A stretch of DNA of 37,765 nucleotides from an uncultured Gemmatimonadales bacterium. GTDB lineage: Bacteria > Gemmatimonadota > Gemmatimonadetes > Gemmatimonadales > JACORV01. The notes under the pieces are model-generated. The model saw only the letters and a list, made by a program, of their open reading frames with translations, did not search any database and had not been told where the DNA came from. Below are positions 3,773-37,765 of the stretch, piece by piece. Numbering within the stretch: position 1 is the stretch's first letter; the number at the start of each line of letters is the position of its first letter. A program made the translations under genes and the position numbers. The stretch lies in assembly GCA_964358595.1 (NCBI GenBank), contig CAYHQJ010000004.1:1-37765 (forward strand). The letters run 5' to 3'.

Positions 3773-4807
3773 GTGAGCGCCTCGCTGTCGGCCGCCGAGA
3801 TCGCCGCTCTGGTCGAGGGCACGCTCGTCGGCGACGGCGGCGTGCGGATCGGCGCGGTGGCGGCGCTCGACCGCGCGGGCCCCGGCGACCTGACGTTTCT
3901 TGCCGCGGCCCGCTACCTGCCCTACTTTCACGCCTCCCGCGCCGGCGCCGTGCTCTGTACCGGGGAGCACCGGGCGGTCCAGCCGGGCCCCGCGACCCGC
4001 ATCATCGTCCCGGACCCGCACCGTGCCATGGTGCGCGTGGTGCGGGTTCTGTATCCGGAACCGCCGCGCCGCGCCGGCGTGGACGCCAGCGCCGTGATCG
4101 GCGAGGGCGCCGTGCTCGGGGGCGACGTGGTCCTCGGGCCGCACGTGGTCGTCGGGCCCCGCGCGCGCCTCGGCGAGCGCGTGGAGGTGATGGCGGGTGC
4201 GGTGATCGGCGCGGGAGTCGCGGTCGGTGACGACGCCACGATCTACCCGCACGTGGTCTGCTACCCGGGCACCGTCGTGGGCGCGCGGGTCATCCTCCAC
4301 GCGGGGGCGCGGCTGGGGGTGGACGGCTTCGGCTACGTGCTGGGGCCCGCGGGCCACGAGAAGATCCCGCACGTGGGGCGGTGCATCATCGGCGACGACG
4401 TCGAGATCGGCGCCAACACGACCATCGACCGCGGCAGCGTGGACGACACGGTGATCGGCGCGGGGACCAAGATCGACAACCTGGTGCACATCGCGCACAA
4501 CTGCCGCGTCGGGACGCGGTGCCTGATCATGGCGCAGGTCGGGCTCGCGGGCTCGGTGCGCGTGGAGGACGGCGCGATCCTCGCCGGGCAGGTGGGCGTG
4601 GGTGGGCACCTCACGGTGGGCGCCAGGGCGCAGGTGGGCGGGCAGGGTGGAGTGATCGGCGACATCCCGGCGGGCGCCATCGTGTCCGGCTATCCGGCGC
4701 GGCCGCACCGCGAGGCCATGCGCGCGACCGCCGCGTTGTACCGCCTGGCGGAGATCGTGGACGAGCTGGAGGTTCTGGTCGAGCGTGGCGGGAAGCAAGC
4801 CGGCTGA
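3773..4807 (+). CDS. lpxD: UDP-3-O-(3-hydroxyacyl)glucosamine N-acyltransferase
   Basis: Hexapeptide repeats, [19 protein letters not shown] and [13 protein letters not shown]. Confidence 0.96.
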
Positions 4808-11863: not shown

Positions 11864-12579
11864 GCGAGTGGTTCGAGCGCTGGTTCGGCGAGGAGTACCT
11901 CAGCCTCTACTCGCACCGCGACGAACAGGAAGCCGAGCGCCTGGTGGCACTGCTGGAGGCGCGCGGGATCGTGCGGGTGGGGCTGCGCATCCTCGACCTC
12001 GCCTGCGGGGCCGGCCGGCATGCGGCGGCACTGGAGCGGCGCGGTGCCGCGGTGGTCGGCCTCGACCTGTCCATGCCGCTGCTGGTCTCGGCGCGGCACC
12101 GCGCCGCGGGCGCGCTCGCGCGCGGCGACATGCGCGCGCTCCCGTTCCGGGCCGCCACCTTCGACGCGGTGCTCAACCTCTTCACCAGCTTCGGGTACTT
12201 CGAGGATGACCGCGAGCACGAGCAGGTCCTGCGCGACGTGGCGCGCGTGCTGCGGCCGCGGGGACGGTTCGTGCTCGACTTCCTGAACGCGCCGGCCGTG
12301 CGCGCGCAGTTGGTGCCGCTGGACGAGCGCACCGTGGGCGGCCGCGTGGTCGTGCAGGAGCGCACGCTCTCCGAGGACGGCCGGTTCGTCGTCAAGCGCA
12401 TCCACCTCCGCGGCGACGGGCGCAGCTTTCTGGAGCGCGTCCGGCTCTACGAGCGCCCGGAGCTGGAGCGGATGCTCGGCGCCTGCGGCCTCGCGCCGCT
12501 GGAGACGCTGGGCGACTACGACGGCGGCGTGCACGGCGCGGCCAGCCCGCGACTCCTGATCCTGGCGGCACGCTCGTGA
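11860..12579 (+). CDS. Class I SAM-dependent methyltransferase (candidate N-methyl-bacillithiol synthase, NmbA-like)
   Basis: Motif I ILDLACGAGRH, GLDLS, RGDMR and NLFTSFGYF; N-terminus WFERWFGEEYLSLYSHRD; coupled to bshC by a GTGA overlap. Confidence 0.85.
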   Translation: MSEWFERWFGEEYLSLYSHRDEQEAERLVALLEARGIVRVGLRILDLACGAGRHAAALERRGAAVVGLDLSMPLLVSARHRAAGALARGDMRALPFRAATFDAVLNLFTSFGYFEDDREHEQVLRDVARVLRPRGRFVLDFLNAPAVRAQLVPLDERTVGGRVVVQERTLSEDGRFVVKRIHLRGDGRSFLERVRLYERPELERMLGACGLAPLETLGDYDGGVHGAASPRLLILAARS

Positions 12580-14126
12580 CCATCCGCTTCGCGGCGACGC
12601 CGCTCGGCGCCCTGCGCGTGGGCGGCCTCGAGGGAGTGGTGCGTGCCCAGCGGGGCCGGGCGCTACCCGCCGCCGCCGCGCCGGCGCTGCTCGCCACCGA
12701 GCGCGCCGCGGAGGGGCTGCACGCGCTGCGGGGTGGCGCGGCGCTGGCCGTCACGACGGGCCAGCAGGCGGGACTGTTCACCGGACCGCTCTACGCGTTT
12801 CAGAAGGCGCTCGGCACCGCGGCGCTCGCGGAGGCGCTCACTCAGCGGCACGGCACGCCGGTGGTGCCGGTCTTCTGGGTCGCCGGCGACGACCACGACT
12901 TCGCCGAGATCAACCACTGCGACGTCCTCGGCGCCGACGGCCGGCTGGCGCGCATCGTCCTGCGGGAGCGGACCGCCGACGCGCCGATGCTGCCCGCCTA
13001 CCGCGAGGCGGTGGGGGCGCAGGGCGTGGCGGCGCTCGCGCAGCTCGAGCAGGCCCTGCCGCCCAGCGAGTTCCGCGGCGAGACGCTCGCCTGGCTCGGC
13101 CGCGCCTACCGGCCCGACCACTCCCTCGCCGAGGCCTTCGCACAGGCGCTGGCCGAGGCGCTCGGCAGGTTCGGGGTGGTCGTGTGCCGCGGCTGGGATC
13201 CGGCGATCAAGCTCGCGGCGGCGCCCGTGCTGCTCGGAGCGCTCCGCAACGCCGCGTCGCTGGATCGGGCGCTGGCGGCGGAGGCGCAGCGGCTGCGCGG
13301 CGCGGGGCGCGAGGCGCCGGTCGCGGTGGGCGAGGGGATGACCCTGGTGATGCTCGAGGGCCGCGCCGGGCGCGACCGGCTCCGCATCGCCGGCGACGGA
13401 GCTTTCCAGGCGCGCCGCGGTGGCGAGCAGCTCACCCTCGCCGACCTCGAGCGCGTGCTGGCCACCGAGCCGGGGCGCCTGTCGGGCAACGTCCTGCTCA
13501 GGCCGGCCGTCGAGGCGTTCCTCCTCCCAACGGTGGCATACCTCGGCGGCCCCGGCGAGCTGGCGTACCTCGCGCAGACGGGGCCGGTCTTCGAGGCGCT
13601 GGGCGTGCCGCGGCCGGCCGCGCTGCCGCGCCTCTCCGGGTTCCTCATCGAGGCCAAAGTGGACAAGGTACTCGAGAAGCACCGGCTGGCGGCCCAGGAC
13701 CTCGCCCGGCCGGAGGGTGACCTGGCCGCCGCGCTGGCGCTGGAGGACCTGCCGACCGGCGCCGTGGCGGCGCTGGAGGCCGTGCGCGGGGCGCTCGCAG
13801 AGCGCTACGCCGCGCTCCAGGCCGAGGCGGTGGCGATCGAGAAGACGCTCGAGAAGCCGGTCGAGAACGCCCGCAACCAGGCGCTGCACGGCCTCCAGGA
13901 GATCGAGAAGAAGCTCGTTGCCGCCCTGCGGCGCCAGAACGAGACCGCGCTCCAGCAGGTGGCGCGGGCCCGGGAGCAGCTGTATCCCGCGGGGAAGCCG
14001 CAGGAACGCGTGCTGTGCGTCGCGTCGTTCCTGTCACGCCACGGGGCGGCGGTGCTGGACGTCATGTACGAGGCCGCGCGCGCCCACGCGCGCCGGCTCC
14101 TTGAAGGGGCCCCCCGGGAAGCCTAG
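12576..14126 (+). CDS. bshC: Bacillithiol biosynthesis cysteine-adding enzyme BshC
   Basis: TTGQQAGLFTGPLY..K, VPVFWVAGDDHDFAEI, SGNVLLRP, YLGGPGELAY, coiled-coil and P.GKPQERV. Confidence 0.93.
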   Translation: MTIRFAATPLGALRVGGLEGVVRAQRGRALPAAAAPALLATERAAEGLHALRGGAALAVTTGQQAGLFTGPLYAFQKALGTAALAEALTQRHGTPVVPVFWVAGDDHDFAEINHCDVLGADGRLARIVLRERTADAPMLPAYREAVGAQGVAALAQLEQALPPSEFRGETLAWLGRAYRPDHSLAEAFAQALAEALGRFGVVVCRGWDPAIKLAAAPVLLGALRNAASLDRALAAEAQRLRGAGREAPVAVGEGMTLVMLEGRAGRDRLRIAGDGAFQARRGGEQLTLADLERVLATEPGRLSGNVLLRPAVEAFLLPTVAYLGGPGELAYLAQTGPVFEALGVPRPAALPRLSGFLIEAKVDKVLEKHRLAAQDLARPEGDLAAALALEDLPTGAVAALEAVRGALAERYAALQAEAVAIEKTLEKPVENARNQALHGLQEIEKKLVAALRRQNETALQQVARAREQLYPAGKPQERVLCVASFLSRHGAAVLDVMYEAARAHARRLLEGAPREA

Positions 14127-19085: not shown

Positions 19086-20579
19086 ATGAGTTTGCGGAGC
19101 GTGGTCTGGGGCGCGCCAGCAGCGGCGCTGTTCCTTGTCGTGGGTACCGCCGCGGCCCAGCAGCCGCCGCAGTGCCGGAGCCTGAGCTTCCGGAGCAACT
19201 TCCGGCTCAACGGCGCGCAGCAGTACCTCGAGCGCGCCGACCGGACGAACCTCGAGGCGGACCGGCGGCGCGAGGTCAACGACGCGGTGCGGAACCTCAC
19301 CGAGGCCTTGACGGACCACGGCGTCGACCAGCTGACGCTGTGGTACTTCTTCGCTCGCGCCTACGCCTTCCGCCGCGACTGGGTCGGTGCCGACTCGGCG
19401 TGGACCAAGGCCGAGCGGCTCGCCGACCCCGAATGCCGGCGCGAGATTGCCCGGCGGCGGCGCAACGAGTGGGTGCCCCTCTACAACCAGGCCGTCGAGG
19501 CGCTGAACGCGCAGAACTACGACTCGGCGCTCGCCATCTTCCGGCGCGCCAACCTGGTCTTCCGCGGCGAGCCCGTCGTGTACGCGAGCATGGCCGGCAT
19601 CTTTGTCCAGCAGGACAACAGCGACAGCGCGATCGTCTACTTCGAGCTGGGGGCGCGGGCGGGGGACGATCCACGCCAGGCCGAAGCGCGCGCGACGGCG
19701 ATGCTGAACGCCGGTCGGCTGCTGCACCGGGCGGAGCGGTTCGCCGCCGCCGAATCGACGTACCGTGCGTACCTCGCCATGAAGCCGCTCGACATGGCCG
19801 CGCGCACCAACCTGGCGGCGGTGCTCACGCGCCAAAACCGGTCGCAGGAAGCCTCGGCCATCTACGACTCGCTGCTCCAGAACACCGACTCGCTCGAGTC
19901 GTTCGACCTGTTCGAGACGGGCGTGGCGTTGTTCCAGCAGGCCGACGCGCTGCCGCGCGCGGACACGGCGCAGCGGGTGCAGAAGTACCGGCTCGCGGCG
20001 CGGGCCTTCGACCTCGGCCTCGCGAAGAACCCGTTCTTCCGCGACGCGCTGTTCAACCTCACGAACGCCTACATCGCGGCGAACGACGGCCCGAACTCTC
20101 TGGGCGCCGCGCGCCGCCTGCTGGCGGCGGATTCCCTCAACCGTCAGTCGTGGACGCTGCTCGCCGGCTCGTACCAGCGTGTCGCCCTGCTGTACCGCAC
20201 GCGCGACTCGATCCTGCGCGCACGCCGGGATTCATTGCCGGCCGCCGACGGGTACGCGGCAAGCTTCCGCGCCTACGCAGACTCGACGGTCTGGGCGCTG
20301 CAGCAACGTGACTCGCTCCCGCTGGAGCTCAGCGTGCACCGCTTCGAGCCGCGCGATTCAACCGCGGTGTTCCGTGGCGGGGCGCAGAACCTCCTGGGGC
20401 ACGAGCGGCCGGCGCTCAGTCTGACGCTGGAGTTCCTGAACGCGGCCGGTGATGTGGTCGCGCGGCAGGTCGTCGAGGTGCCGGCCCTCAGTGCCACGGG
20501 GCAGCCGGGAAGCGTGTACGATTTCAACCTGACCGCGACCGGACGGGGCATCATCGCCTACCGGTACAAGGTGAACTGA
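19086..20579 (+). CDS. Secreted TPR-repeat protein with C-terminal Ig-like (FxLYD-like) domain
   Basis: SD AAGGAG 9 nt before ATG 19086; signal peptide ending AAA-Q; TPR-like helices (YNQAVEAL..YDSALAIF, NPFFRDALFNL); beta-rich C-terminus LTLEFLNAAGDVV. Confidence 0.8.
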   Translation: MSLRSVVWGAPAAALFLVVGTAAAQQPPQCRSLSFRSNFRLNGAQQYLERADRTNLEADRRREVNDAVRNLTEALTDHGVDQLTLWYFFARAYAFRRDWVGADSAWTKAERLADPECRREIARRRRNEWVPLYNQAVEALNAQNYDSALAIFRRANLVFRGEPVVYASMAGIFVQQDNSDSAIVYFELGARAGDDPRQAEARATAMLNAGRLLHRAERFAAAESTYRAYLAMKPLDMAARTNLAAVLTRQNRSQEASAIYDSLLQNTDSLESFDLFETGVALFQQADALPRADTAQRVQKYRLAARAFDLGLAKNPFFRDALFNLTNAYIAANDGPNSLGAARRLLAADSLNRQSWTLLAGSYQRVALLYRTRDSILRARRDSLPAADGYAASFRAYADSTVWALQQRDSLPLELSVHRFEPRDSTAVFRGGAQNLLGHERPALSLTLEFLNAAGDVVARQVVEVPALSATGQPGSVYDFNLTATGRGIIAYRYKVN

Positions 20580-20585: not shown

Positions 20586-20613
20586 TTGACACGAGGCGGA
20601 GGGATCCTACATT
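20586..20613 (+). promoter_or_regulatory. Sigma70-type promoter for tRNA-Gly and downstream genes
   Basis: TTGACA (20586-20591), a 16-nt spacer and TACATT (20608-20613), 11 nt upstream of the tRNA 5' end, with a GC-rich discriminator. Confidence 0.65.
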
Positions 20614-24983: not shown

Positions 24984-25363
24984 CGGTGGCCGCCGGACCG
25001 CCCGTGCAGGAGTTCTTTTCGATCGGCGAGGTCTGCACCCTCACCGACCTGAAGCCGCACGTGCTGCGGTACTGGGAGAGCCAGTTCCGGTTCCTGAACC
25101 CCGCCAAGAACCGCTCGGGCAACCGCGTGTACCAGCGCCGCGAGATCGAGCTGATCATGCTCGTCAAGCACCTGCTGTACACGGAGAAGTACACCATCGA
25201 GGGGGCGCGCCAGCGGATCGAGCACTTCCGTCGGACGGGCGAGCTCAAGCCGGCCGCGCGCGACGCGCTGGCGGTCGAGTTGGTGCGCGACCTCAGGCAC
25301 GAGCTCGAGCAGGTGATGAAGATCCTCAACGGCGAGAAGGTCGGGCCGCGGACCGATGGGTGA
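24980..25363 (+). CDS. MerR-family HTH transcriptional regulator (short, no effector domain)
   Basis: FSIGEVCTLTDLKPHVLRYWESQF, GNRVY, LLYTEKYTIEGAR; TTG start overlaps the gpsA stop (TTGA). Confidence 0.9.
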   Translation: MTVAAGPPVQEFFSIGEVCTLTDLKPHVLRYWESQFRFLNPAKNRSGNRVYQRREIELIMLVKHLLYTEKYTIEGARQRIEHFRRTGELKPAARDALAVELVRDLRHELEQVMKILNGEKVGPRTDG

Positions 25364-26072
25364 GACGACGCCCCGCGGCCCGGAGGTGGCGCTGGTGATC
25401 CCGGCCTTCCAGGCCGCGCGCACGCTCCCCGACGTGCTGGCGCGCGCCCGGCGCGCCGTGCCCGGGGCCCAGCTCCTCGTCGTGGACGACGGCTCCGACG
25501 ACGACACCGCGGGGATCGCCCACGCGTGCGGCGCCGCCGTGGCGAGCCACGAGCGCAACCTCGGCAAGGGCAGGGCCCTCGCGACCGGCCTCGCCGGCGC
25601 CGAGGCGCTCGGCGTCCCGTACGTCGTCACGCTGGACGCCGACGGCCAGCACCCGCCGGAGGAGATCCCGATGCTGCTGGCCCCGCTGGTCGCGGACCGT
25701 GCCGACCTCGTGGTCGGCGCGCGGCGGCGCGACGGGTCCGCCATGCCACCCGGCCGCCGGTTTACCAACTGGCTCTCGAGCACCCTCGTCTCGCGCGCCG
25801 TGGGCGCGAGCGTCCCCGACTCGCAGTCCGGCTTCCGCGCGATGCGCGCCGCCGTCGCCGCCACGGTGAGGCCCGCCGGGCAGCGCTACGAGTTCGAGAC
25901 CGAATTCCTGTTGCTCGCCGCCGAGCGCGGCTTCCGCATCACCGCGGTGCGCGTCCCGACCGTGTACGGGGGCGAGCGCAGCCACTTCCGCTACGTCGCC
26001 GACACGCTGCGCCTGGCCGGCGTCTTCGCGCGGCACTGGCGCCGCATCCTCGCGGGCCCGCAACCGACATGA
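25356..26072 (+). CDS. GT2 glycosyltransferase (DPM/DPG synthase-like)
   Basis: VIPAFQ, VVDDGSDDDT, NLGKGRAL, TLDADGQH and DSQSGFR. Confidence 0.9.
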   Translation: MGETTPRGPEVALVIPAFQAARTLPDVLARARRAVPGAQLLVVDDGSDDDTAGIAHACGAAVASHERNLGKGRALATGLAGAEALGVPYVVTLDADGQHPPEEIPMLLAPLVADRADLVVGARRRDGSAMPPGRRFTNWLSSTLVSRAVGASVPDSQSGFRAMRAAVAATVRPAGQRYEFETEFLLLAAERGFRITAVRVPTVYGGERSHFRYVADTLRLAGVFARHWRRILAGPQPT

Positions 26073-30016: not shown

Positions 30017-30850
30017 TCATGTTGGCAGCTCTCCGACGATTCCTCTGCACACCAGTCTCCCTTCGCCACGGAGGCGAATGGACGTAATGAGGTCGGCGTT
30101 TCGCGTCCAGGAGACGTCCAGGGGCAGACGGCTCCGCGTCCAGATGCGGACGGGGCTCGAGGCCATCGCCTTCTCCTCGAGCGTCAGGGCGCAGGCTACG
30201 GCCCCCGTACCGCAGGCCAGCGTTTCCCCCTCGACCCCCCGCTCCCAGGTTCGCATCCGGTACGTCCCGTCGCCGACCGGGGAGACCCAGTTCACGTTGG
30301 CACCGCCGGGTCCTATGGCCGGGTCCCGCCTCAAGGGGGGCCCGCGGCGGTCCAGATCCACCTTGTCCACATCCGGGACCAGGAGGACGAGGTGCGGGAC
30401 GCTGGGACAGGCGTAGGTCGGGAACGCCTCCCCATCGGTCGTCCGGGCGCCCGGGAGGGACTTGGGCGGCGGGCAGTCGGGCAGCTCGATCTCGGGCCGG
30501 CCGTCCACGATCCACCCCCGGTGGACCCCCGCCGGGGTGGCGAAGCGGACCTCGGCCTCGAGCGGGGCGAGCTCGAGCAGGGTGGCCAGCCGGGTGGCGC
30601 ACAGGGCGCCGTTGCCGCACATCGGGCCCTCGGATCCGTCGCTGTTCCAGAAGTGGAACGTGAAGTGGACGTCCGGGCCCTCCGCCGGAGCCAGGAGGAT
30701 GACCCCGTCCGCGCCGACGCCGAGCCGGCGGTCGCACAACGCCGCGATGCGCTCCGTGGTGAAGTCCTCGCGTCGCAGGTACCGGCCGTCGAACATCAGG
30801 AAGTCGTTCCCCGAGCCGGTCATCTTGTGGAATACGCTGCCCGTCTTCAC
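30017..30850 (-). CDS. dapF: Diaminopimelate epimerase
   Basis: FHKMTGSGNDF, GVGADG, NSDGSEGPMCGNGALC, GANVN and RTWERGVEGETLACGTGAVA; GTG start overlaps the upstream stop. Confidence 0.95.
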   Translation of the reverse strand: MKTGSVFHKMTGSGNDFLMFDGRYLRREDFTTERIAALCDRRLGVGADGVILLAPAEGPDVHFTFHFWNSDGSEGPMCGNGALCATRLATLLELAPLEAEVRFATPAGVHRGWIVDGRPEIELPDCPPPKSLPGARTTDGEAFPTYACPSVPHLVLLVPDVDKVDLDRRGPPLRRDPAIGPGGANVNWVSPVGDGTYRMRTWERGVEGETLACGTGAVACALTLEEKAMASSPVRIWTRSRLPLDVSWTRNADLITSIRLRGEGRLVCRGIVGELPT

Positions 30851-31569
30851 ACGCGCCCCGTGAGCGCCCACCAGCGCAGGCGCCAGACCATCCAGACCGC
30901 TTCCCAGACGATGCCCCGGGACATCTTGCTCTGCCCGTGGCTGCGGTCGGTGAACAGGATGGTGATCTCCTTCAGCCGGAATCCCTTCCGCCAGGCCCTG
31001 AACGACATCTCGATCTGGAATGAATAGCCGTTCGAGCGGACGCGGTCGAGATCCACGGCCTCGAGCACCCTCCTCCGGTAGCACTTGAAGCCTCCGGTGG
31101 AGTCCCAGAGCTTGAGTCCGGTGACCCACCGCGCGTACACGTTGGCGAAGTACGAGAGGAGCAGTCGCGTCATCGGCCAATTCACCACTGTGACGCGCTT
31201 GTCGAGGTAGCGCGAGCCGATGACGAGGTCCGCGTCGTGGATCTGCGCGAGGAACTCCGGCAGGTGCTCGGGGTCGTGCGAGAAGTCGGCGTCCATCTCG
31301 TACACATAGTCGTAGCGGTGCTCGAGGGCCCACCGGAAGCCCGCCACGTATGCGGTGCCGAGCCCCAGCTTCCCCGTCCGGTGGAGCACGTGCACCCGCG
31401 GCTCGGCCTGCGCGAGCGCCTCGGCGAGCTCGCCCGTGCCGTCGGGCGAGCTGTCGTCCACGACCAGGACCTCGAGCCGCGGGTCCTGCTCGAGGATCTG
31501 GGGCACGATCCTGGGCAGGTTCTCGTGCTCGTTGTAAGTCGGGATGATGACGAGCGCGCGCTCAGCCAC
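30847..31569 (-). CDS. Polyprenol monophosphomannose synthase-like GT2 (DPM1/Ppm1 family)
   Basis: IIPTYNEHENL, VVDDSSPDGTG, KLGLGTAY, EMDADFSHDP, GSRY, DSTGGFKC and SNGYSFQIE. Confidence 0.9.
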   Translation of the reverse strand: MAERALVIIPTYNEHENLPRIVPQILEQDPRLEVLVVDDSSPDGTGELAEALAQAEPRVHVLHRTGKLGLGTAYVAGFRWALEHRYDYVYEMDADFSHDPEHLPEFLAQIHDADLVIGSRYLDKRVTVVNWPMTRLLLSYFANVYARWVTGLKLWDSTGGFKCYRRRVLEAVDLDRVRSNGYSFQIEMSFRAWRKGFRLKEITILFTDRSHGQSKMSRGIVWEAVWMVWRLRWWALTGRV

Positions 31570-33931
31570 GGCGCCTCCGCACCAGCAGCGGAATGCCGAT
31601 CCACCCGATCACGCAGGCCAGCGAGGCGAACGTCAGCAGCGCGCCCTGCCGGTAGCGCTCCCGCGAGTACTCGAGCCGGACGTCGCGCGCGCCGGCCGGG
31701 ACGGGCACGGTGAGGAACGTGTAGTCGCCGCGCAGAGCGCGCACCTCGCGGCCGTCCACGGTGGCACGCCACTCCGGGTACCAGTTCTCGCTGATCAGCA
31801 CGTACGATGGGGCGTCGGGCGCCGGATCGAGCCGGAGCGTCATCGTCCCCGGCTCCCAAGCCGTGACCTGGGCGCGCGAGGCGCTCGGCGCCGGCAGGCC
31901 GCCGGTGATCGGCGGAACCTCGACGGGCGCGTCCTGCGGCAGCAGCACGATGCGGTCCACGTCGAGGCGGCGGTCCATCAACGTCGGGACGATCTGCGCA
32001 TTCGGGATCTTCGCCGCCGCCGGCACGATGCGCGCGTAGGGGGGGACGGTGTCGGCCTCGAGCAGGACGGCCTGCCCGCCGGGCGTGATCGCCGACTGTC
32101 CCGTCACCTCGTGAAACCCCGGAACCGGGAGCGATTGGGGAAGGATGATGAAGCGCACCGCGAGCAGCTGGTAGAGGTTTCGCGGTCTGCTGATCAGGTC
32201 CTGGATCTGCCCCGTCGGGAAGAGGTTTCGCCAGACGTTCTTGCCACCGAGCAGGTTGTCGTAGTCGTTCAACTCGTTGCCGTGGTGGCCGATCGCCTGC
32301 GGGATGCCCTTGGCCATCAGGTAGGCCGTCGGGTAGACGCCCGGATCCAGCACGCGGTAGGGCTTGGGGGTCGCCTCGAGCTGTCGGGTGATCGGGTCGT
32401 CGGCGTAGAGCTCGGCGGCACGGGGTGAGTACTGCCAGAACCGCCGTACGTTGAGGAACAGGTCGCCGCCCACTAGGGCGGCGAGCGCGAAGGCGGAGCC
32501 GAGCGCGCGGAGTCTCCCCCCCAGCACCGCGAGCGCCAGGCCGGCGGCGGCCGCGGCGAACGCCGCCGCCTTGACCGCCGACAGCGCGACGTTGCCCGCG
32601 TTGTCGGCTGCGGTGCCGGCCTTTCCGGGATCGGCGACCGATTCCGCGATGCTCCCGAGCGCGCCGCTGGCGCCGAGCAGCAGCAGCGCGCCGGCAGCGA
32701 CCAACACGCCCCACACCACTCGCCTGCCCTCGCCCCGCTCGAGCCGTTCGACGCCGAGCGCGGCGAACAGCGCGAACGCGAAGGTGGAGATGAAGAAGGC
32801 CATCCCGGCGGCCCGTGTGACTTTGACGCCCGGCACGAGGGCGTACCAGATCCGGTAGAACGGCGTGTGAGCGCCGAGGCTCACCAGCAGGAATAGCAGG
32901 CCGGCACCGGCGAAGAACCACACCAGGGGACGGCGATCCTTGTGCCCCACGCCGAGGGCGGCGAGCGCGAGCACCGCGGCGCCGACGTACTCGGTGTGCA
33001 GCTTGGCCGCGTTCTCGCCCGAGTAGTGCGCCAGGATGCCGGTGAAGTCCGAGACGACCCAGTCCACGACGTTGGGCAGCGGCATCGCCCAAGACGTGGC
33101 GTACTCCCAGCCCTGCGCGCCGGCGCTGCGCGCCGCGTACGGCATGTACTTGACGAACGGCCACAGCTGGATCATCGCGACGCCGCAGGCGAGCACGATG
33201 GCAGCCAGGGCGAGGCCGAGCGAGGCCCAGCGCCAACGCGGCTCCGGTCGCTCGGGGCTCCAGAAGCACAGGTAGAGCGTGAACAGGCCCGCCAGGATGA
33301 GCGTGTATTGCATCATCTGGATGTGCGGGCTGATGATCCCCGCCCCGGCGGCGAAGGCGAGCAGCCCGAATCCCTCGAGGCGCCGGTCACGGATGCCGAG
33401 CACCAGCGCCGTGAGCACCACGGGCATCCACGCCGAGACGAACAGCTTGCCGTCGTGGCCGGGGCTCACCAGCGAGGCGACGATGCCCGAGAGCTGGTAC
33501 GCCAGGCCGCCCACCACGCTGCCCGTCCAGCTGATCTTCAACACGCGGAAGAACAGGTAGGCGAACAACCCTGCGAGCACGCAGTGCACGGCGAAGCCGA
33601 GGTTCATCGCGATGTCGATCGGCAGGACGAGGCGGAGCCACGCCGTCGGGTAGAAGATGTCGCCGTGCATCGCCCCGACGAACGGCAACCCGCCGAACAT
33701 GAACGGGTTCCACAGCGGGATGTGGCCCGTGCGGCGCCACTCCCCGGCGCCGAACCAGCGGAACGGCACGCCGGTCCACATCTGGTCGCTGCTCGGGTTC
33801 ACGAGGAACTTCCCCGTGAACATCGGGAGGCAGAGGAGCAGGATCCACGCCGTCAGCAGCGCCAGCGCGAGGAGCGTCGGGGCGCGGGGCCTGAATGGCT
33901 CGAGGCTCGTCGCCTCAGGCTTCGGGGCCAT
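31562..33931 (-). CDS. YfhO-family multi-pass membrane protein (GT-C-fold glycosyltransferase candidate)
   Basis: GHIPLWNPFMFGGLPF, FYP, more than 10 TM helices, and a large extracytoplasmic C-domain with LISENWYPEWRATVDG and VPVPAG..VRLEY before a final TM helix. Confidence 0.85.
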   Translation of the reverse strand: MAPKPEATSLEPFRPRAPTLLALALLTAWILLLCLPMFTGKFLVNPSSDQMWTGVPFRWFGAGEWRRTGHIPLWNPFMFGGLPFVGAMHGDIFYPTAWLRLVLPIDIAMNLGFAVHCVLAGLFAYLFFRVLKISWTGSVVGGLAYQLSGIVASLVSPGHDGKLFVSAWMPVVLTALVLGIRDRRLEGFGLLAFAAGAGIISPHIQMMQYTLILAGLFTLYLCFWSPERPEPRWRWASLGLALAAIVLACGVAMIQLWPFVKYMPYAARSAGAQGWEYATSWAMPLPNVVDWVVSDFTGILAHYSGENAAKLHTEYVGAAVLALAALGVGHKDRRPLVWFFAGAGLLFLLVSLGAHTPFYRIWYALVPGVKVTRAAGMAFFISTFAFALFAALGVERLERGEGRRVVWGVLVAAGALLLLGASGALGSIAESVADPGKAGTAADNAGNVALSAVKAAAFAAAAAGLALAVLGGRLRALGSAFALAALVGGDLFLNVRRFWQYSPRAAELYADDPITRQLEATPKPYRVLDPGVYPTAYLMAKGIPQAIGHHGNELNDYDNLLGGKNVWRNLFPTGQIQDLISRPRNLYQLLAVRFIILPQSLPVPGFHEVTGQSAITPGGQAVLLEADTVPPYARIVPAAAKIPNAQIVPTLMDRRLDVDRIVLLPQDAPVEVPPITGGLPAPSASRAQVTAWEPGTMTLRLDPAPDAPSYVLISENWYPEWRATVDGREVRALRGDYTFLTVPVPAGARDVRLEYSRERYRQGALLTFASLACVIGWIGIPLLVRRRRG

Positions 33932-34829
33932 CGCCGGTGCGTCTCGTGAGAGGAAGCGTGATCAGGGCGGCCAGGACCTCCGTGCCGGTCATCAGGATCC
34001 GGGATCCGATCGAAACCACCGTCGCGCCCGCGGGCCCGAGCGGTCCCGACAGCCAAAGGTAGAGGGCTCCCTCGCGCACGCCGAGTCCCCCCGGCGTGAA
34101 CACCGCGATCAGCCCGAACAGGTACGACCCGGTGAAGACGCCGATGGCGGTGCCGACCGGGATCGCCGCGCGGCCGAGCAGGCCGCGGGTGCAGAAGTGG
34201 AGTGCGAGGCCGTACGCGACCCACGCGAACGTCGTCACCGCCGCGGAGATCACGAGCGGTCCCGCCGCGACGGGGGCGAGCTGGAACGGCCGGCCGAGGG
34301 CGCTCAGCATCCGTGCGAGCAGTTTGGTACTCGGTTCCCACGCCAGCGTTCCCACCCCGACGGCGGCGGCCAGGCCCGCCGCGACTATGAGCAGCGGGTG
34401 GCCCGACTGCGGCACGAGCAACCCGGTGACGAGGGCGCCGGTCGCGACGGCGAGCAGCTGCACGATGATCGCCGAGCCGGCGGCGGCCCACGGCTTCACA
34501 CCCGCCTGCTGTGCGAGGGCGGCCATGCTGGCGATCTGCCAGATCCGGCCGGGGACGTAGCGAGCGAGGTTCGAGAGGCACCAGATGCGCGCGGCGGCCG
34601 GGTAGCGCAGCCGCTCGCCCCATCCCAGCAGCACGGCCCGCCACGCCCCGATCAGCAGCGCGTAGCTGGCGAGGATGATCGCGACTGCGGCGGCCAGCGC
34701 GCCGAGGTCGAGATGGATCGTCGCGGCGGAGCCGCGGACCTCCGCCCAGTTGCGGGTGATCGACCGACCGACGAAGTACGCGACCAGGCCGATGAGCGCG
34801 ACCTGCGCGGCGACCCAGAGCCGCCGCAT
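33915..34829 (-). CDS. Lysylphosphatidylglycerol synthase TM-domain / flippase-like membrane protein
   Basis: About 8 TM helices, SNLARYVPG.IW, TPGGLGVREG and SR.L. ATG 34829 (or GTG 34832) overlaps the GT4 stop. Confidence 0.82.
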   Translation of the reverse strand: MRRLWVAAQVALIGLVAYFVGRSITRNWAEVRGSAATIHLDLGALAAAVAIILASYALLIGAWRAVLLGWGERLRYPAAARIWCLSNLARYVPGRIWQIASMAALAQQAGVKPWAAAGSAIIVQLLAVATGALVTGLLVPQSGHPLLIVAAGLAAAVGVGTLAWEPSTKLLARMLSALGRPFQLAPVAAGPLVISAAVTTFAWVAYGLALHFCTRGLLGRAAIPVGTAIGVFTGSYLFGLIAVFTPGGLGVREGALYLWLSGPLGPAGATVVSIGSRILMTGTEVLAALITLPLTRRTGDGPEA

Positions 34830-36019
34830 CACGGCCGCACTCCGGCGACGCTCCCGCGGCTGCTCCGCCCCCGCGCCGCGCGGTAGATCCCCTCGAACTG
34901 CTCGGCCACCTTCTCGGGCGAGAGCCGCTCGGCGATCGCCTTCCCCGCGCGCAGGGCGCCGATGGCGAAGCGGTCCTCCGCGAGCACCATCCTGATCGCC
35001 TCGGCGAGGGCGCCGGGATCGCCGGGTGGCACGAGCGCGCCGGCCTCGGGGTCGCGCAGCAGGTCGGGGATGCCGCCCGAGCGGGTCGCGACCACGGGCA
35101 CGCCCAGGGCGAGCGCCTCGGCCACCGCGAGCCCGAGTCCCTCGTTCACCGAAGGCAGGATGAAGATACGCTTGCCCGCGAGGTGGTCGAACACCCGCTC
35201 CGGCGGCACGAAGCCGGTGAACATGACCGGCAGGCCGAGGGCGATCGCCTGCGCCTTGAGCGCGGCGCGCTCCGGCCCGTCGCCGACGACGGTGAGGTCG
35301 ATCGAGAGGCCGGTGCGCCTGAGCCTGGCGAGCGCGTCGAGCAGGTGGTGGACGCCCTTCTGCTGCGTCAGCCGGCCCACGAAGATCGCGCCGCTGCGCG
35401 CCGCGTCGGGGTCCGGGAACTTCGTCATCGCCATCGGCATCGGCGTGAGCGGGATGGCGTGGACCGGAACGCCGAGCGCCCTGGCGGCGTCGGCGGCGAG
35501 GAAGCTCGAGACGGCGGTCACGGTGGTGGCGCGGCGCAGCACGGCGGCCATCGCGGCCGTGCCGCCCGGCAGCCGGTTCGCCACGGCGACATCGGTGCCG
35601 TGCAGGGTGACGATGAACGGGCGACCGTGCCGCCGGGCCAACGCGCTCGCGAGCCCGGCCGGCACCCACCAGTGCGCGTGGATCACGTTCACCGTGCCCT
35701 TGAGGCATTCCTCGGCGATCGCCCGGGAGAACGCGCGCAGGAGGCCGGCGAACGCGAGGACTGCGAGCGGCGAGCGCCCGACGTCGCTGTGCATCGTGCC
35801 GTGGTAGGCGAGGGTTTCCCGCTTCGCTGACGCGTAGCGGAGGCGGCGCACCGCGACGCCGCCGAGCGTGGCCGGGCCCACGTCCCCCTGATCGGCTGGC
35901 GCCAGCACCAGGACGCCGTGGCCGCGGTCCGCCAGGGCTGCGGCGAGCCGCCAGATGAACGCGCCGGCGATATCTCCTTCCACCCGGGGGAAGGAGTGCG
36001 CGACCATCAGGACCCGCAC
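34829..36019 (-). CDS. GT4 family glycosyltransferase
   Basis: MRVLMVAHSFP, IHAHWWVPAG, TLHGTD, FVGRLTQQKG, VGDGPER, EGLGLAVAEA (Ex7E) and GGIPD. Confidence 0.92.
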   Translation of the reverse strand: MRVLMVAHSFPRVEGDIAGAFIWRLAAALADRGHGVLVLAPADQGDVGPATLGGVAVRRLRYASAKRETLAYHGTMHSDVGRSPLAVLAFAGLLRAFSRAIAEECLKGTVNVIHAHWWVPAGLASALARRHGRPFIVTLHGTDVAVANRLPGGTAAMAAVLRRATTVTAVSSFLAADAARALGVPVHAIPLTPMPMAMTKFPDPDAARSGAIFVGRLTQQKGVHHLLDALARLRRTGLSIDLTVVGDGPERAALKAQAIALGLPVMFTGFVPPERVFDHLAGKRIFILPSVNEGLGLAVAEALALGVPVVATRSGGIPDLLRDPEAGALVPPGDPGALAEAIRMVLAEDRFAIGALRAGKAIAERLSPEKVAEQFEGIYRAARGRSSRGSVAGVRP

Positions 36020-36023: not shown

Positions 36024-36995
36024 CTAGCGCTCGTCCCGGCGCCGGGCCAGCTCGCCCGTCAGCTCGCGCACGGCGCGGTGGAGCTCGCGGACCTCCTCGC
36101 GCTGCCCCGCCAGCAGCTCGCCGATGAAGCCGAACCCGAACAGCGCGATGCCGGAGATCACGAGGGTCTCGATGAGGTTGAGGATCGGCCGGAAGCCCAC
36201 GCCGTAGCCGAACCGCACGATCAGCGCGGCGAGGCCGGCGAGGAAGCCGAGGACGAACAGCACGGTGCCCAGCACGCCGAAGAACAGCATCGGCTTGCGG
36301 CCGAAGCGCAGCTGGAACCAGACCGACAGCAGGTCCATGACGCCGACCGGGATCCGCGCGAGACCGAACTTGCTGCTCCCGGCGCGGCGCGGGTGGAGCG
36401 TGACCGGCCGCTCCGCGAGGCGGAAGCCCTGCGCGCTGGCGACGACCGCGAAGAAGCGGTGCCAGTCGGGACGCATCGGGATCGTGTCGGCGACCTCCCG
36501 GCGGTACGCCTTCACCGAGTTGAGGTCGGTGACGTTCACGCCGAACAGTCGGCGGCAGAGCACGTTGTAGATCCCCGAGACGAACGCTTTGTCGTAGACG
36601 CCCTGCTTGGTGCCGGTGACGAGGTCGGCCTCGCCGGCGAGGATCGGGGCGACGAGGAGCGGGATCTCGGCCGGCAGGAACTGGAGGTCGGCGGGGTAGA
36701 AGACGAACACCCTGCCCCGCGCGGCGAGCGCGGCGGTGCGGAGGGCCTCGGTGATCCCCTGGCGCGTGCGGTGGCGTTCCCAGCGCAGGAACGGGTGGCG
36801 CGCGGCCAGCTCGCGCAGCACGTCCGGCGTCGCGTCCGCGCTGCCGTCGTCCACCACCAGGACTTCGGCGCGGAAGTCCGTCGCCGCGAAGGCGTCGGCG
36901 CACTGGCGGACGAACTCGGGCAGGCTGTCGGCCTCGTCCTTAGCGGGGACGAGGACGCTCACGTCCACGGGGCCCGTCGCGTCGGCGAGGCTCAT
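36024..36995 (-). CDS. GT2 glycosyltransferase with two C-terminal TM helices (GtrB/ArnC/CsbB-like polyprenyl-phosphate sugar synthase)
   Basis: VLVPAKDE, VVDDGSADAT, PADLQ, HPRRAGSSKF, KPMLFFG, two TM helices and GFIGEL; ATG 36995 overlaps the rpoN stop. Confidence 0.88.
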   Translation of the reverse strand: MSLADATGPVDVSVLVPAKDEADSLPEFVRQCADAFAATDFRAEVLVVDDGSADATPDVLRELAARHPFLRWERHRTRQGITEALRTAALAARGRVFVFYPADLQFLPAEIPLLVAPILAGEADLVTGTKQGVYDKAFVSGIYNVLCRRLFGVNVTDLNSVKAYRREVADTIPMRPDWHRFFAVVASAQGFRLAERPVTLHPRRAGSSKFGLARIPVGVMDLLSVWFQLRFGRKPMLFFGVLGTVLFVLGFLAGLAALIVRFGYGVGFRPILNLIETLVISGIALFGFGFIGELLAGQREEVRELHRAVRELTGELARRRDER

Positions 36996-37765
36996 ACGCG
37001 CTTGCGCATCCGCGCCGAGAGGATGCCGAGCTGGTCGCGGTACTTGGCCACGGTGCGGCGCGCGATGCGCACGCCCCGCTCGCGCAGCTTCTGGACGATC
37101 TGCTGGTCGGTGAGCGGGTCCAGCGCGCTCTCCTCGTCCACCAGCCTCTGGATCTGCGCCTTGATCGAGCGCGCGCTGGCGTCTTCCCCGGTCGTGGTCG
37201 AGAGGGCGCTCGAGAAGAAGAACTTGAGCTGGAGCACGCCGCGCGGCGTCTGCACCCACTTCTCGTTGGTCACGCGGCTCACCGTGCTCTCGTGCATGTT
37301 GATGACCTCCGCGACCTCGCGCAGCGTGAGCGGCCTGAGGTACTCGATGCCCTTCTCGAAGAAGTCGTGCTGCCGGTCCACGATGAAGTTCATCACCTTG
37401 AGCATCGTCTGGCGGCGCTGCTCGATCGCCTGGATCATCCACTGGGCGCTGTTGAGGCGCTGGGTGATGAACTCCCGGTTCTCGCCCACGAACTTCTTCT
37501 TGTCGCGCGCGACCTCCCGGTAGGCGCGCGCGAGGCGCAGCCGCGGCAGGTTCGTGTCGTTGAGGAAGACGTGGTACTTCCCGTCCACCTTGTCGACGAC
37601 GAGGTCGGGGATGATGTAGTCCTCGCCGCCGGAGCCGTGGCGCAGCCCCGGCTTCGGGTCGAGCTTGGCGATCTCGTCGGCGGCAGCCTGCACCTCGGCG
37701 GCCCCGATCCCGAGCCGCTTGGCGAGGTCGCTCCAGCGGTGGGCGATGAGGTCGGGGAACGCCTC
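36992..37765 (-). CDS. rpoN: RNA polymerase sigma-54 factor, C-terminal part (5' end outside window)
   Basis: LDPKPG, PLTLREVAEVINMHESTVSR, TPRG..LKFFF and the RpoN box ARRTVAKYR. Confidence 0.97.
   Translation of the reverse strand, partial: EAFPDLIAHRWSDLAKRLGIGAAEVQAAADEIAKLDPKPGLRHGSGGEDYIIPDLVVDKVDGKYHVFLNDTNLPRLRLARAYREVARDKKKFVGENREFITQRLNSAQWMIQAIEQRRQTMLKVMNFIVDRQHDFFEKGIEYLRPLTLREVAEVINMHESTVSRVTNEKWVQTPRGVLQLKFFFSSALSTTTGEDASARSIKAQIQRLVDEESALDPLTDQQIVQKLRERGVRIARRTVAKYRDQLGILSARMRKRV

Follow-up and report, generated by a model that had tools for sequence, protein, structure and literature searches.

General O-glycosylation directed by a sequon counts as a hallmark of the Bacteroidota, in which the identity of the transferase has been sought for more than 15 years. 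There, the sequon D-(S/T)-(A/I/L/V/M/T) is confined to non-cytoplasmic proteins and occupied almost in full, and the attached glycans share a core at the reducing end that comprises hexose/mannose, deoxyhexose and hexuronic acid (PMC12871550). The bacteria-wide ring in the same review names the Bacteroidota and the Fibrobacterota alone as sequon-enriched (PMC12871550). A preprint predicts that YfhO is the Bacteroidota OTase and, in its account, Porphyromonas gingivalis glycosylates its proteins yet lacks YfhO (bioRxiv 10.64898/2026.07.27.740950). As described in one recent report, YfhO-family enzymes together with GtrB/PgfS-type GT2s O-glycosylate extracytoplasmic proteins in streptococci, a role established by experiment, and CsbB/GtcA/YfhO glycosylates teichoic acids in Bacillus and Listeria (PMC12041528, Nat Commun 2025).

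Here we describe a stretch of 37,765 nt (the window) from a Gemmatimonadales genome (GCA_964358595.1; 2.38 Mb, 72.8% complete, 2252 genes called) that carries both a sequon-rich exported TPR protein, P0001, and an rpoN-linked operon with a YfhO-family glycosyltransferase, P0122 (Table 1). The Gemmatimonadota are an environmentally abundant phylum, separate from the Bacteroidota although both belong to the FCB group. In our view, the likely role of the P0001 triplets is to accept sugars from a general O-glycosylation system with the sequon of the Bacteroidota, one probably run by the rpoN-linked operon.

Table 1. Coordinates of the features discussed, in window positions
Feature	Position	Strand	Basis or conservation
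P0001 gene, 497-aa exported TPR protein	19086..20579	+	ORF list and translation
P0001 predicted Sec signal peptide, residues 1-25	19086..19160	+	Sequence reading and heuristic scan
P0001 TPR repeat region, about residues 132-366	19480..20180	+	Family profile against TPR structures
P0001 C-terminal domain, about 125 aa, fold without assignment, 5/12 sequons	20190..20576	+	Weak DUF3426 match
Twelve-sequon span of P0001	19392..20363	+	
Sequon ADSA103 (DSA)	19392-19400	+	Conserved in 90/121 family members
Sequon YDSA146 (DSA)	19521-19529	+	Conserved in 117/121
Sequon SDSA180 (DSA)	19623-19631	+	Conserved in 120/121
Sequon YDSL261 (DSL)	19866-19874	+	Conserved in 101/121
Sequon TDSL268 (DSL)	19887-19895	+	Conserved in 110/121
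Sequon ADTA293 (DTA)	19962-19970	+	Conserved in 22/121
Sequon ADSL349 (DSL)	20130-20138	+	Conserved in 76/121
Sequon RDSI374 (DSI)	20205-20213	+	Conserved in 22/121
Sequon RDSL382 (DSL)	20229-20237	+	Conserved in 35/121
Sequon ADST399 (DST)	20280-20288	+	Conserved in 73/121
Sequon RDSL409 (DSL)	20310-20318	+	Conserved in 107/121
Sequon RDST424 (DST)	20355-20363	+	Conserved in 78/121
GT2 like polyprenyl-phosphate sugar synthases, directly downstream of yfhO	30850..31569	-	PF00535 121.8 bits
P0122, YfhO-family GT-C membrane glycosyltransferase, 789 aa, candidate sequon-reading transferase	31565..33931	-	PF09586
Membrane protein with LPG_synthase_TM (UPF0104) flippase-like domain	33918..34832	-	PF03706 42.3 bits (cut-off 33.4)
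GT4 glycosyltransferase	34832..36019	-	PF00534 125.8 bits, PF13692 126.4 bits
GT2 with C-terminal membrane segments (like ArnC/GtrB/PgfS), first after rpoN	36027..36995	-	PF00535 78.4 bits
rpoN (sigma-54), heads operon, cut by window end	36995..37765	-	Sigma54_DBD 208.8 bits, Sigma54_CBD 72.7 bits

The N-terminus of P0001 reads as a signal peptide, with Arg4, a 19-residue hydrophobic core (VVWGAPAAALFLVVGTAAA) and cleavage between A-A-A and Q-Q, and a pattern of this type is kept in the family consensus (58 aligned homologues); no lipobox was found there on reading the sequence. The assignment as non-cytoplasmic follows from this signal peptide, as called by a heuristic and not by SignalP. The 58 family sequences all share Cys30 and Cys117, a pair that may form a disulfide in the periplasm. 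The gene could also start at a TTG at 19080. Pfam places TPR_19 (34.3 bits, cut-off 25) and TPR_16 (34.0 bits, cut-off 32.7) on the protein, and its family profile matches 154 PDB sequences at E ≤ 0.01, with engineered or consensus TPRs at the top (9qhb, E 8e-52; 8bu0, E 1e-26; profile positions 135-376). P0001 thus has the same 34-residue repeat as consensus TPR proteins and periplasmic TPR scaffolds, with about 240 positions aligned, but it has an additional C-terminal domain, on which the DUF3426 match (19.5 bits) falls below its cut-off of 27.7. Unlike consensus TPRs, the family is seen in the Gemmatimonadota only: the 120 homologues among the matches listed are all Gemmatimonadota where named, the nearest of them being 93% identical and also 497 aa long, and a search of the ESM Atlas returned Gemmatimonadota TPR clusters only. 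NCBIfam models for TPR proteins (PrsT, FlcA, Tgl, PorW and others) matched weakly and below threshold, and pointed to no specific function. The neighboring genes, a PLP enzyme upstream and a radical-SAM DUF512 protein and Der downstream, give no functional lead, and a scan for promoters and terminators around the gene found nothing else useful beyond a promoter-like site at 20586-20613, 3' of the gene.

A script count reproduces exactly the list of 12 sequons among 31 Asp given in the initial annotation, and all 12 D-[ST] dipeptides of P0001 are followed by a permitted third residue, as had been stated there. Composition alone predicts 1.35 sequons and 3.2 D-[ST] dipeptides; the highest count in 20,000 shuffles was 7 sequons, so that none gave 12, while 12 D-[ST] arose in a fraction of 5e-5, and P0001 ranks second in sequon enrichment among the 2252 called genes. 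The cytoplasmic proteins with which it had been compared do carry about zero to one sequon each (LpxD 1, LpxA 1, LpxB 1, GDH 0, UvrC 1 and Der 1). The density is a family trait, with a mean of 10.5 sequons per member against 1.5 expected (121 members). In the family alignment D103, D146/S147 and D180/S181 are invariant; S104 is present in at least 90% of 58 aligned members, and the position holds S or T in 121/121. At the conserved D-S sites the next residue varies among I, M, L, V, A and T, plus S.

This property extends to the exported proteome as a whole, the outcome that the initial annotation had named as support for its claim. The mature parts of proteins with a predicted signal peptide (n = 479) contain 1150 sequons where 434.5 are expected, a ratio of 2.65 (bootstrap 95% CI 2.44-2.86), compared with 785 against 728.2, or 1.08 (CI 0.98-1.18), in the cytoplasmic class (n = 1184). 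Removing the 20 most enriched proteins leaves a ratio of 2.32, and only 128 of the 1150 sequons have another at a distance of 8 residues or less. After D-S in exported proteins, the observed-to-expected ratio is 4.10 for L, 3.84 for I, 3.70 for V, 3.42 for T, 3.20 for A and 3.11 for M, and then drops to 1.48 for S, 1.31 for G and 1.13 for F; in cytoplasmic proteins every third residue stays at about 1. When 3,400 tripeptides of the exported class are ranked blind, DSL, DSA, DSV and DST take places 1-4, DSI is sixth, and DTL and DTT are tenth and eleventh. The third-residue preference derived blind from this genome is equal to the Bacteroidota motif.

The pattern also appears within single proteins. 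Among membrane kinases, whose topology is certain, 7 of 21 kinase-motif proteins pass a preset rule, with 1 sequon in their cytoplasmic parts (4.7 expected) and 32 in their ectodomains (9.0 expected); under a relaxed rule, for which 10 of 17 qualify, the counts are 2 (6.6 expected) and 19 (6.0 expected). Multi-pass membrane proteins, with loops assigned by the positive-inside rule, give 75/39.6 = 1.89 for inside and 81/49.3 = 1.64 for outside loops. Six proteins of the cytoplasmic class are strongly enriched. Several of these six, and of the other outliers without a called signal peptide, resemble exported proteins with a miscalled start, or kinases with ectodomains. When four proteins from a survey of the most and least sequon-rich were searched against Pfam, the one on contig C61 matched no family.

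We regard it as extremely unlikely that the genome-wide signal is an artefact of gene calling, of the signal-peptide heuristic or of the composition model. The gene caller and the signal-peptide and transmembrane classifiers are home-made heuristics, starts are uncertain (the caller put that of P0001 at 19101 instead of 19086), and in another sampled genome, G022, cytoplasmic proteins score high too (63/31.2 = 2.02). Against this, the signal-peptide classifier sees only the first 60 residues, whereas sequons are counted on the mature part with each protein's own composition as the expectation, and misclassification could only dilute the contrast. Four control motifs are flat in the signal-peptide class (D[ST][not AILVMT] 0.76, E[ST][AILVMT] 0.85, N[ST][AILVMT] 0.71 and the reversed motif 1.03), and the ratio is the same for signal peptides called from primary starts (2.66, n = 389) and from alternative starts (2.60, n = 90).

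Other genomes were passed through the same gene-calling and classification pipeline. Escherichia coli K-12 (1.18 for the signal-peptide class vs 0.91 for the cytoplasmic class) and Sinorhizobium meliloti pSymB (1.09 vs 0.96) show no enrichment, and Bacteroides hominis gives the modest signal expected of it (1.38 vs 1.10), an imprint smaller than the 2.65 of the Gemmatimonadales genome. Lack of enrichment need not mean lack of the system, because Algoriphagus, a member of the Bacteroidota, shows none (1.05 vs 0.90). Eight other Gemmatimonadota, when pooled, give 557/244 = 2.28 for exported and 395/347 = 1.14 for cytoplasmic proteins, with DSL and DTL ranking first and second of 4,088 tripeptides; the samples of G027, G049, G012 and G003 (20-31 kb each) are too small to show enrichment or its absence. 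One lineage, G058, departs from this pattern: in an evenly spaced sample its exported proteins are depleted in the sequon (74/123.1 = 0.60), and its sequons are concentrated as dense arrays on LptA/LptC-like proteins. A 40-kb piece of the same genome gives 3.29x, caused by two array-bearing Lpt-like proteins. A reading of G058 as a non-enriched control lineage is not borne out, as the evenly spaced sample shows depletion plus arrays.

The initial annotation had cautioned that Y-D-x-A is also favored by TPR helix geometry, and a stricter reading would make all 12 triplets by-products of that geometry or of helix capping at the helix A/B turn, with no modification involved. The caveat stands in part. 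Both the D and the A of sites 146 and 180 belong to the TPR consensus, so that the D-E-A turn of consensus TPRs corresponds to D-S-A in the P0001 family, and at site 349 the D is that of the consensus L-D-P, read as V-D-S-M in the family; P0001 sites are, moreover, conserved in position as structural residues are. The caveat fails for the Ser. Consensus TPRs have E and not S at that position, and orthologues in three other lineages carry, at the three conserved D-S-A sites, VEF/QAA/GGA (G058), HEA/ERA/ERA (G027) and DAA/ERA/EQA (G049), keeping the A while E-R, Q-A, G-G and the like replace D-S. Because these orthologues lose D-S, the TPR fold keeps the A without needing D-S, and the Ser is not accounted for by TPR geometry. 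Site 103 resembles the other D-S-A sites yet is not covered by the TPR-consensus alignment, and 5 of the 12 sites fall beyond the TPR region. The same triplets lead the blind scan of exported proteins, a class made up mostly of proteins other than TPR proteins, but stay at chance level in cytoplasmic proteins, and the kinases bear them on their ectodomains and not on their cytoplasmic halves. Geometry with no modification is, therefore, a very improbable account of the 12 triplets. Counting against the glycosylation reading, the TPR consensus by itself already supplies the D and the +1 residue at 3 or 4 of the 12 sites.

Taken with the 12 sequons of P0001, the marking of the whole exported proteome indicates that sequon-directed O-glycosylation probably works in the Gemmatimonadota too. 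The claim that the same system operates in this non-Bacteroidetes FCB lineage is thus supported, at the level of sequence, by enrichment confined to exported proteins and by the blind match at the third position. The likeness to the Bacteroidota system is close: the sequon is identical, restricted to non-cytoplasmic proteins, biased to Ser over Thr and spread over many unrelated exported proteins, and a homologous yfhO gene is present. The candidate genes differ in their setting, being linked to rpoN in the Gemmatimonadales (in the order GT2, GT4, flippase-like, YfhO, GT2) and adjacent to sahH/luxS in the Bacteroidota.

P0122, the YfhO-family protein of this operon, matches PF09586 at 35.1 bits (cut-off 28.5) over its C-terminal 49 residues only, and three Bacteroidota YfhO ORFs match in the same partial manner (35.7-50.5 bits). 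Profile alignment with the sahH-adjacent YfhO of Bacteroides hominis (hhalign) gives a probability of 99.7% and an E of 6e-27 over 704 columns, and the two are reciprocal only-hits; by this comparison, P0122 is a full-length homologue of Bacteroides YfhO. A crude scan finds at least eight hydrophobic segments. In other GT-C enzymes, catalytic acidic residues lie in the first extracytoplasmic loop; all 36 Gemmatimonadota YfhO sequences compared share D49, D91 and H159-D160, with the register against Bacteroides near D49 off by one, and a profile search of the PDB returned no relatives of the family at E ≤ 1. A YfhO homologue is present in 61 of 61 sampled Gemmatimonadota and 60 of 61 sampled Bacteroidota genomes. 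The flippase-like protein has a weak TIGR00374 match. For the GT2 downstream of yfhO the top NCBIfam models, all below their cut-offs, are AglJ, PpgS, ArnC and a Dol-P-hexose transferase; for the GT2 next to rpoN, which has two predicted hydrophobic segments, they are ArnC-type (79 bits), AglJ and PgfS, again below cut-off. P0122 in turn matches PgfM2 and PgfM1 weakly, as the operon GT2s do PgfS. The window contains MurJ and GT2/GT4 genes, and no metG-wzx (LFG-type) arrangement was seen within its 37,765 nt.

These weak matches lead back to the streptococcal systems. As far as they are described in that report, GtrB/PgtC2 and PgfS/PgfM1 form the same module, in which a GT2 makes an Und-P-monosaccharide and a YfhO-family GT-C transfers it onto Ser/Thr, and they act in monoderm cells on Ser/Thr-rich disordered regions with no defined sequon; the Gemmatimonadales, by contrast, are diderm and have a strict D-S/T-hydrophobic candidate acceptor triplet that lies mostly in folded domains. 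CsbB/GtcA/YfhO of Bacillus and Listeria, on the same account, combines the same families (GT2, small flippase and YfhO) in the same logic of a lipid-linked monosaccharide donor, but its acceptor is teichoic acid, whereas the Gemmatimonadales data point to proteins. Teichoic acid polymers are not known from Gram-negative bacteria.

It is possible, although unlikely in our judgment, that the sequon is read in the periplasm by a transferase other than YfhO, by a non-homologous system or by another export-specific process; variants include the PMT_2 proteins of contig C26, a Wzy_C/PglL-like ligase, another enzyme, a different modification or a periplasmic recognition factor. Two PMT_2 (ArnT/PMT-like) GT-C proteins are indeed encoded on C26 above cut-off (49.0 and 46.5 bits), but PMT_2 has no match in the Bacteroides thetaiotaomicron control. 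No Wzy_C (PglL-type) protein exceeds the cut-off of 31.7 bits in this 72.8% complete genome, the best match reaching 27.8 bits on contig C174. YfhO is the sole tested GT-C family to pass its Pfam cut-off in both this genome and B. thetaiotaomicron. A shared reader is also favored by the third-position profile, which is that of the Bacteroidota sequon, and enzymes of the YfhO family have been proven to O-glycosylate proteins in streptococci (PMC12041528). On the other hand, YfhO presence does not predict enrichment, since G058 has a homologue and a proteome that avoids the motif. The case for YfhO as the transferase is also weakened because P. gingivalis, according to the preprint, glycosylates without it (bioRxiv 10.64898/2026.07.27.740950), and the OTase of the Bacteroidota is still unproven (PMC12871550).

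We infer the attachment of a glycan, the enzyme that attaches it, the identity of the glycan and the role of the TPR protein from the data above. Under glycosylation by a sequon-reading system, P0001 would be exported by Sec as a soluble periplasmic (or outer-membrane-associated) TPR scaffold, and the Ser or Thr of its sequons would receive a sugar after export, where the inner membrane faces the periplasm. The GT2 enzymes of the operon would load this sugar onto undecaprenyl phosphate, the flippase-like protein would move the lipid-linked sugar across the membrane and the YfhO-family GT-C would transfer it onto protein, with further sugars perhaps added later. P0001 may thus be heavily glycosylated, and could serve as a periplasmic scaffold that binds proteins, with glycans shielding or stabilizing the surfaces at its helix turns.

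More tentatively, at somewhat under even chances, the rpoN-linked operon would be the general protein O-glycosylation machine of the Gemmatimonadota, with its YfhO the orthologue of the Bacteroidota transferase, in a system that predates the split of the FCB group and has led to opposite adaptations of the proteome. YfhO would then act in a PMT-like manner, using an Und-P-sugar as donor to start the glycan on D-S/T-x; the sequon would be the most over-represented exported tripeptide in most Gemmatimonadota, while the G058 lineage would avoid it in exported proteins and gather it into repeat arrays of LptA and LptC, two LPS-transport proteins.

If sequon-directed glycosylation does operate here, a second phylum with a stronger imprint would place the origin of the system nearer the root of the FCB group. 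Two distant phyla have the sequon and YfhO in common, which bears on the identity of the long-sought transferase. Proteins would be the likely target of a YfhO operon that is phylum-wide in the Gemmatimonadota, and in these genomes sequon density could flag, at little cost, which proteins are exported and which parts of a membrane protein lie outside the cytoplasm.

P0001, an exported tetratricopeptide repeat (TPR) protein whose open reading frame translates to 497 residues, contains 31 Asp and 12 D-S/T dipeptides. A script count found A, I, L, V, M or T after all 12, reproducing the manual list of Bacteroidota O-glycosylation signals (sequons, D-(S/T)-(A/I/L/V/M/T)) in the initial annotation. 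Composition predicts 1.35 sequons, and none of 20,000 shuffles reached 12 (maximum, 7); the cytoplasmic neighbours described earlier as sequon-poor hold 0–1 each on recount. Among the 2252 proteins called in the source genome (72% G+C, 2.38 Mb, 296 contigs, 72.8% complete), P0001 ranks second for sequon enrichment. At its N-terminus, Arg4 and a 19-residue hydrophobic core precede a cleavage site between A-A-A and Q-Q, with no lipobox there, and Cys30 and Cys117 are invariant across 58 aligned homologues, which would fit a periplasmic disulfide. TPR_19 and TPR_16 exceed their Pfam cut-offs, and the family profile aligns over ~240 positions with consensus or engineered TPR proteins (9qhb, E = 8e-52; 8bu0, E = 1e-26); the last ~125 residues form a domain without a recognised fold, and no specific function is assignable from Pfam or NCBIfam matches. 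A homology search returned 210 relatives at E ≤ 0.001, and among the 120 listed the source, wherever named, was Gemmatimonadota or Gemmatimonadales; ESM Atlas neighbours are likewise TPR clusters from Gemmatimonadota.

The motif is conserved beyond this one protein. Across 121 family members (33–93% identity), the mean is 10.5 sequons versus 1.5 expected, and a permitted third residue follows 85.5% of D-S/T dipeptides, with A, I, L, V, M and T together making up ~42% of P0001 residues. D103, D146/S147 and D180/S181 are invariant in the family, S104 is retained by at least 90% of the 58 aligned sequences (all 121 have S or T there), and variable +1 positions hold I, M, L, V, A or T, with S as the main exception. 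The initial annotation had cautioned that TPR helix geometry itself favours YDxA. In a profile alignment, sites 146 and 180 fall on the consensus TPR D-E-A turn and site 349 on consensus L-D-P, so the caution holds to the extent that at these three sites the Asp and the following residue come 'free', but the Ser is an addition. Orthologues in families f2 and f3, from the phylum's representative genomes, largely retain D-S/T-A at sites 103, 146 and 180, and those of three genomes (G058, G027 and G049) read VEF/QAA/GGA, HEA/ERA/ERA and DAA/ERA/EQA (the comparison set aside L264 of G057 and the partial loci L278 and L280). What the fold requires is the Ala, not the D-S.

The initial annotation had proposed to test its reading by a genome-wide contrast between exported and cytoplasmic proteins. 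Genes were called with a self-trained codon model (coding density, 0.92; the window's genes are consistent with Pfam), proteins were classed by an N-terminal signal-peptide heuristic and a count of hydrophobic segments, and expected sequons came from each protein's own composition, counting signal-peptide proteins over the mature part only. In these heuristic classes the contrast is clear: signal-peptide proteins (n = 479) hold 1150 sequons against 434.5 expected, a ratio of 2.65 (bootstrap 95% CI 2.44–2.86), whereas cytoplasmic proteins (n = 1184) hold 785 against 728.2, or 1.08 (CI 0.98–1.18). Multi-pass membrane proteins (n = 253; 223/149.9) stand at 1.49, those with a single extra TM segment (n = 154; 126/114.0) at 1.11 and 5'-truncated proteins (n = 182; 211/133.0) at 1.59. 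Control motifs are flat in the signal-peptide class (D[ST][other], 0.76; E[ST][AILVMT], 0.85; N[ST][AILVMT], 0.71; reversed, 1.03). The signal is broad: at least one sequon occurs in 68% of signal-peptide proteins versus 39% of cytoplasmic ones, enrichment is present in all length classes, removing the 20 most enriched proteins leaves the ratio at 2.32, and only 128 of the 1150 sequons have another within 8 residues. Fifty-three proteins have Poisson p < 1e-3, 41 of them in the signal-peptide class; the other 12 include a multicopper oxidase (Pfam), two proteins with lipoprotein-like N-termini and membrane kinases with large ectodomains, and several of these (the oxidase and the lipoprotein-like pair) look like exported proteins with a miscalled start.

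The data also return the specificity of the motif unprompted. After D-S in signal-peptide proteins, the residues with the highest observed/expected values are L (4.10), I (3.84), V (3.70), T (3.42), A (3.20) and M (3.11). Values then drop sharply, to S 1.48, G 1.31 and F 1.13, and the cytoplasmic class stays at ~1 for all third residues. The preference after D-T is less marked (T 2.47, L 2.26, V 1.69). A blind scan of the 3,400 tripeptides whose expected count in signal-peptide proteins is 12 or more ranks DSL, DSA, DSV and DST 1–4 (z 13–20), DSI 6, DTL 10, DTT 11, DTA 63 and DTI 444. The motif so derived matches the Bacteroidota sequon, including its Ser preference, as given in a 2025 review (PMC12871550). 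Topology within single proteins points the same way. Ser/Thr-kinase catalytic-loop motifs occur in 21 proteins, 7 of which satisfied a rule fixed in advance: a single predicted TM segment following the kinase domain, and an ectodomain no shorter than 60 aa. In these 7, the cytoplasmic portions contain 1 sequon (4.7 expected) and the ectodomains 32 (9.0 expected). A relaxed TM threshold, covering 10 of 17 proteins, gave 2/6.6 and 19/6.0, respectively. A rougher test on the loops of multi-pass membrane proteins gave 75/39.6 = 1.89 inside and 81/49.3 = 1.64 outside.

Sequon ratios (observed/expected) in comparison genomes
Genome	Signal-peptide class	Cytoplasmic class
E. coli K-12	71/60 = 1.18	143/158 = 0.91
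S. meliloti pSymB	53/49 = 1.09	163/170 = 0.96
Bacteroides hominis	180/131 = 1.38	125/114 = 1.10
Algoriphagus marincola	93/89 = 1.05	130/145 = 0.90
G032 (another class)	2.40	1.21
G016	2.65	1.04
G040	1.95	0.73
G059	2.34	0.75
G002	2.27	1.26
G006	1.97	1.05
G008	2.22	1.09
G022	2.48	2.02

The same code run on 400 kb of each of the four genomes from outside the phylum gave ratios from which we conclude that the sequon signal is not made by the pipeline. The imprint is stronger in the source genome than in Bacteroides hominis, which belongs to a genus with a proven system and in which DSL ranks 6 among 3,687 tripeptides. Pooling the eight Gemmatimonadota genomes in the table gives 557/244 = 2.28 for signal-peptide and 395/347 = 1.14 for cytoplasmic proteins, with DSL and DTL ranked 1 and 2 among 4,088 tripeptides; four further samples of 20–31 kb each are too small for judgement. 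An 80-kb stretch of G022 (C91:1-80000, L315–L318) has 63 cytoplasmic-class sequons against 31.2 expected, which may reflect misclassified exported proteins.

G058, from the same class but another order, is an exception (contig C1; L002–L021, L281–L282, L321–L340). Twenty evenly spaced 20-kb pieces gave 74/123.1 = 0.60 for signal-peptide and 0.80 for cytoplasmic proteins, a 400-kb block 0.85 versus 0.81, and DTT is within the six most under-represented tripeptides. Paired proteins of ~1100 and ~580 aa in that block (SusC/SusD-like by size only) have 0 sequons where 4.2–4.5 are expected. The same genome has an LptA-like protein (632 aa, 28 sequons) and an LptC-like protein (291 aa, 12 sequons) with dense (A/P)-D-(S/T)-(A/T)-A-A arrays, whose genes adjoin an lptB-rpoN-YfhO operon (gene names by size and order). 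The source genome's top sequon protein (contig C113; 20 sequons in 525 aa), whose gene probably follows directly where the window's contig stops in rpoN, resembles LptA/LptD_N weakly (17.9 bits, under cut-off) and has a similar C-terminal A-D-S-T / P-D-T array. Avoidance in G058 and enrichment elsewhere both imply that the motif has periplasmic consequences.

A candidate transferase, the 789-aa YfhO-family GT-C protein P0122, lies in the rpoN-linked operon, and the proteome data suggest that proteins are this operon's target. P0122 exceeds the Pfam YfhO cut-off through its C-terminus only (35.1 bits), as do three Bacteroidota ORFs of 805–833 aa. A profile of 36 Gemmatimonadota YfhO sequences matches a Bacteroides hominis ORF over 704 columns (probability 99.7%, E = 6e-27); that ORF directly follows sahH and is therefore the yfhO which the accessible part of a 2026 preprint (10.64898/2026.07.27.740950) predicts in silico to be the sequon-reading transferase. 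Searched in the source genome, the ORF finds P0122 alone, and P0122 in three Bacteroidota genomes finds only each genome's single YfhO-like ORF (820–833 aa). All 61 Gemmatimonadota genomes sampled have a homologue (60 of 60 without G057), as do 60 of 61 sampled from Bacteroidota, and none was found in E. coli K-12 or pSymB. In NCBIfam the operon's GT2s are similar to polyprenyl-phosphate sugar synthases (ArnC, AglJ, PpgS, PgfS, Dol-P-hexose transferase), each match falling under its cut-off. Other GT-C candidates in the source genome are two PMT_2 proteins, which might carry out periplasmic glycosyl transfer instead, and a Wzy_C match under cut-off; STT3 was not found in this 72.8% complete assembly. 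That YfhO is the transferase we regard as an evenly balanced call. In many Gemmatimonadota genomes the P0001 orthologue lies 10–26 kb from the YfhO gene (for example, G059:C10, G039:C3, G045:C1 and G058:C1), a spacing that suggests a housekeeping region of conserved gene order, not an operon link.

Coordinates of the features discussed (window positions unless a contig of the source genome, G000, is named)
Feature	Position	Strand	Detail
P0001, TPR protein	19086-20579	+	sequon Asp at 103, 146, 180, 261, 268, 293, 349, 374, 382, 399, 409, 424
rpoN-linked operon	30850-37765	-	rpoN (cut by window end), GT2 (ArnC/GtrB-like, C-terminal membrane segments), GT4, flippase-like (LPG_synthase_TM/UPF0104), YfhO, second GT2, dapF
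P0122, YfhO family	31565-33931	-	
Third GT2	25356-26069	+	between MerR regulator and surE
LpxC-FabZ fusion	4785-6083	+	433 aa; PF03331 + PF07977
GFO/IDH/MocA oxidoreductase	6861-7841	+	between lpxA and lpxB
BshC homologue	12576-14123	+	Rossmann-like_BshC (225.7 bits) + CC_BshC
Top sequon protein	C113:4167-5741	+	
Two large PMT_2 (ArnT/PMT-like) GT-C proteins	C26:3044-3385 and 12213-12692	+	ORFs 948 and 856 aa

Other genes in the window deserve mention. The third GT2, apart from the YfhO operon, is polyprenyl-phosphate-sugar-synthase-like (best NCBIfam match PpgS, 98 bits, under cut-off). LpxC is fused to a FabZ-like dehydratase, an arrangement known in other FCB-group bacteria, and the oxidoreductase in the lipid A cluster may be GnnA-like, serving the synthesis of a 2,3-diamino-sugar lipid A. 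The BshC homologue suggests bacillithiol synthesis in the source Gemmatimonadota.

A search for Gemmatimonad* and O-glycosylation found no report of such a system in Gemmatimonadota; the phylum is not mentioned in the text of the review PMC12871550, and the preprint, as far as its accessible part goes, describes P. gingivalis as without YfhO and does not treat other phyla. Experiments in PMC12041528 show that streptococcal YfhO-family GT-C proteins, each with a GtrB/PgfS-type GT2 as partner, O-glycosylate extracytoplasmic Ser/Thr-rich regions. In the mechanism we propose, the operon's GT2s would make an undecaprenyl-phosphate-linked donor, the UPF0104 protein would flip it, and YfhO would move the sugar onto the Ser/Thr of D-S/T-x after Sec export.

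Overall, the export-specific sequon statistics lend computational support to the original reading of Bacteroidota-type O-glycosylation in this Gemmatimonadota lineage, and we consider it likely that the sequons are O-glycosylation sites of such a system. It would be a system of a known kind in a phylum where it has had no earlier description, with P0001 as a probable new and very dense substrate, whose glycans would sit on its C-terminal domain and at the turns between helices A and B.
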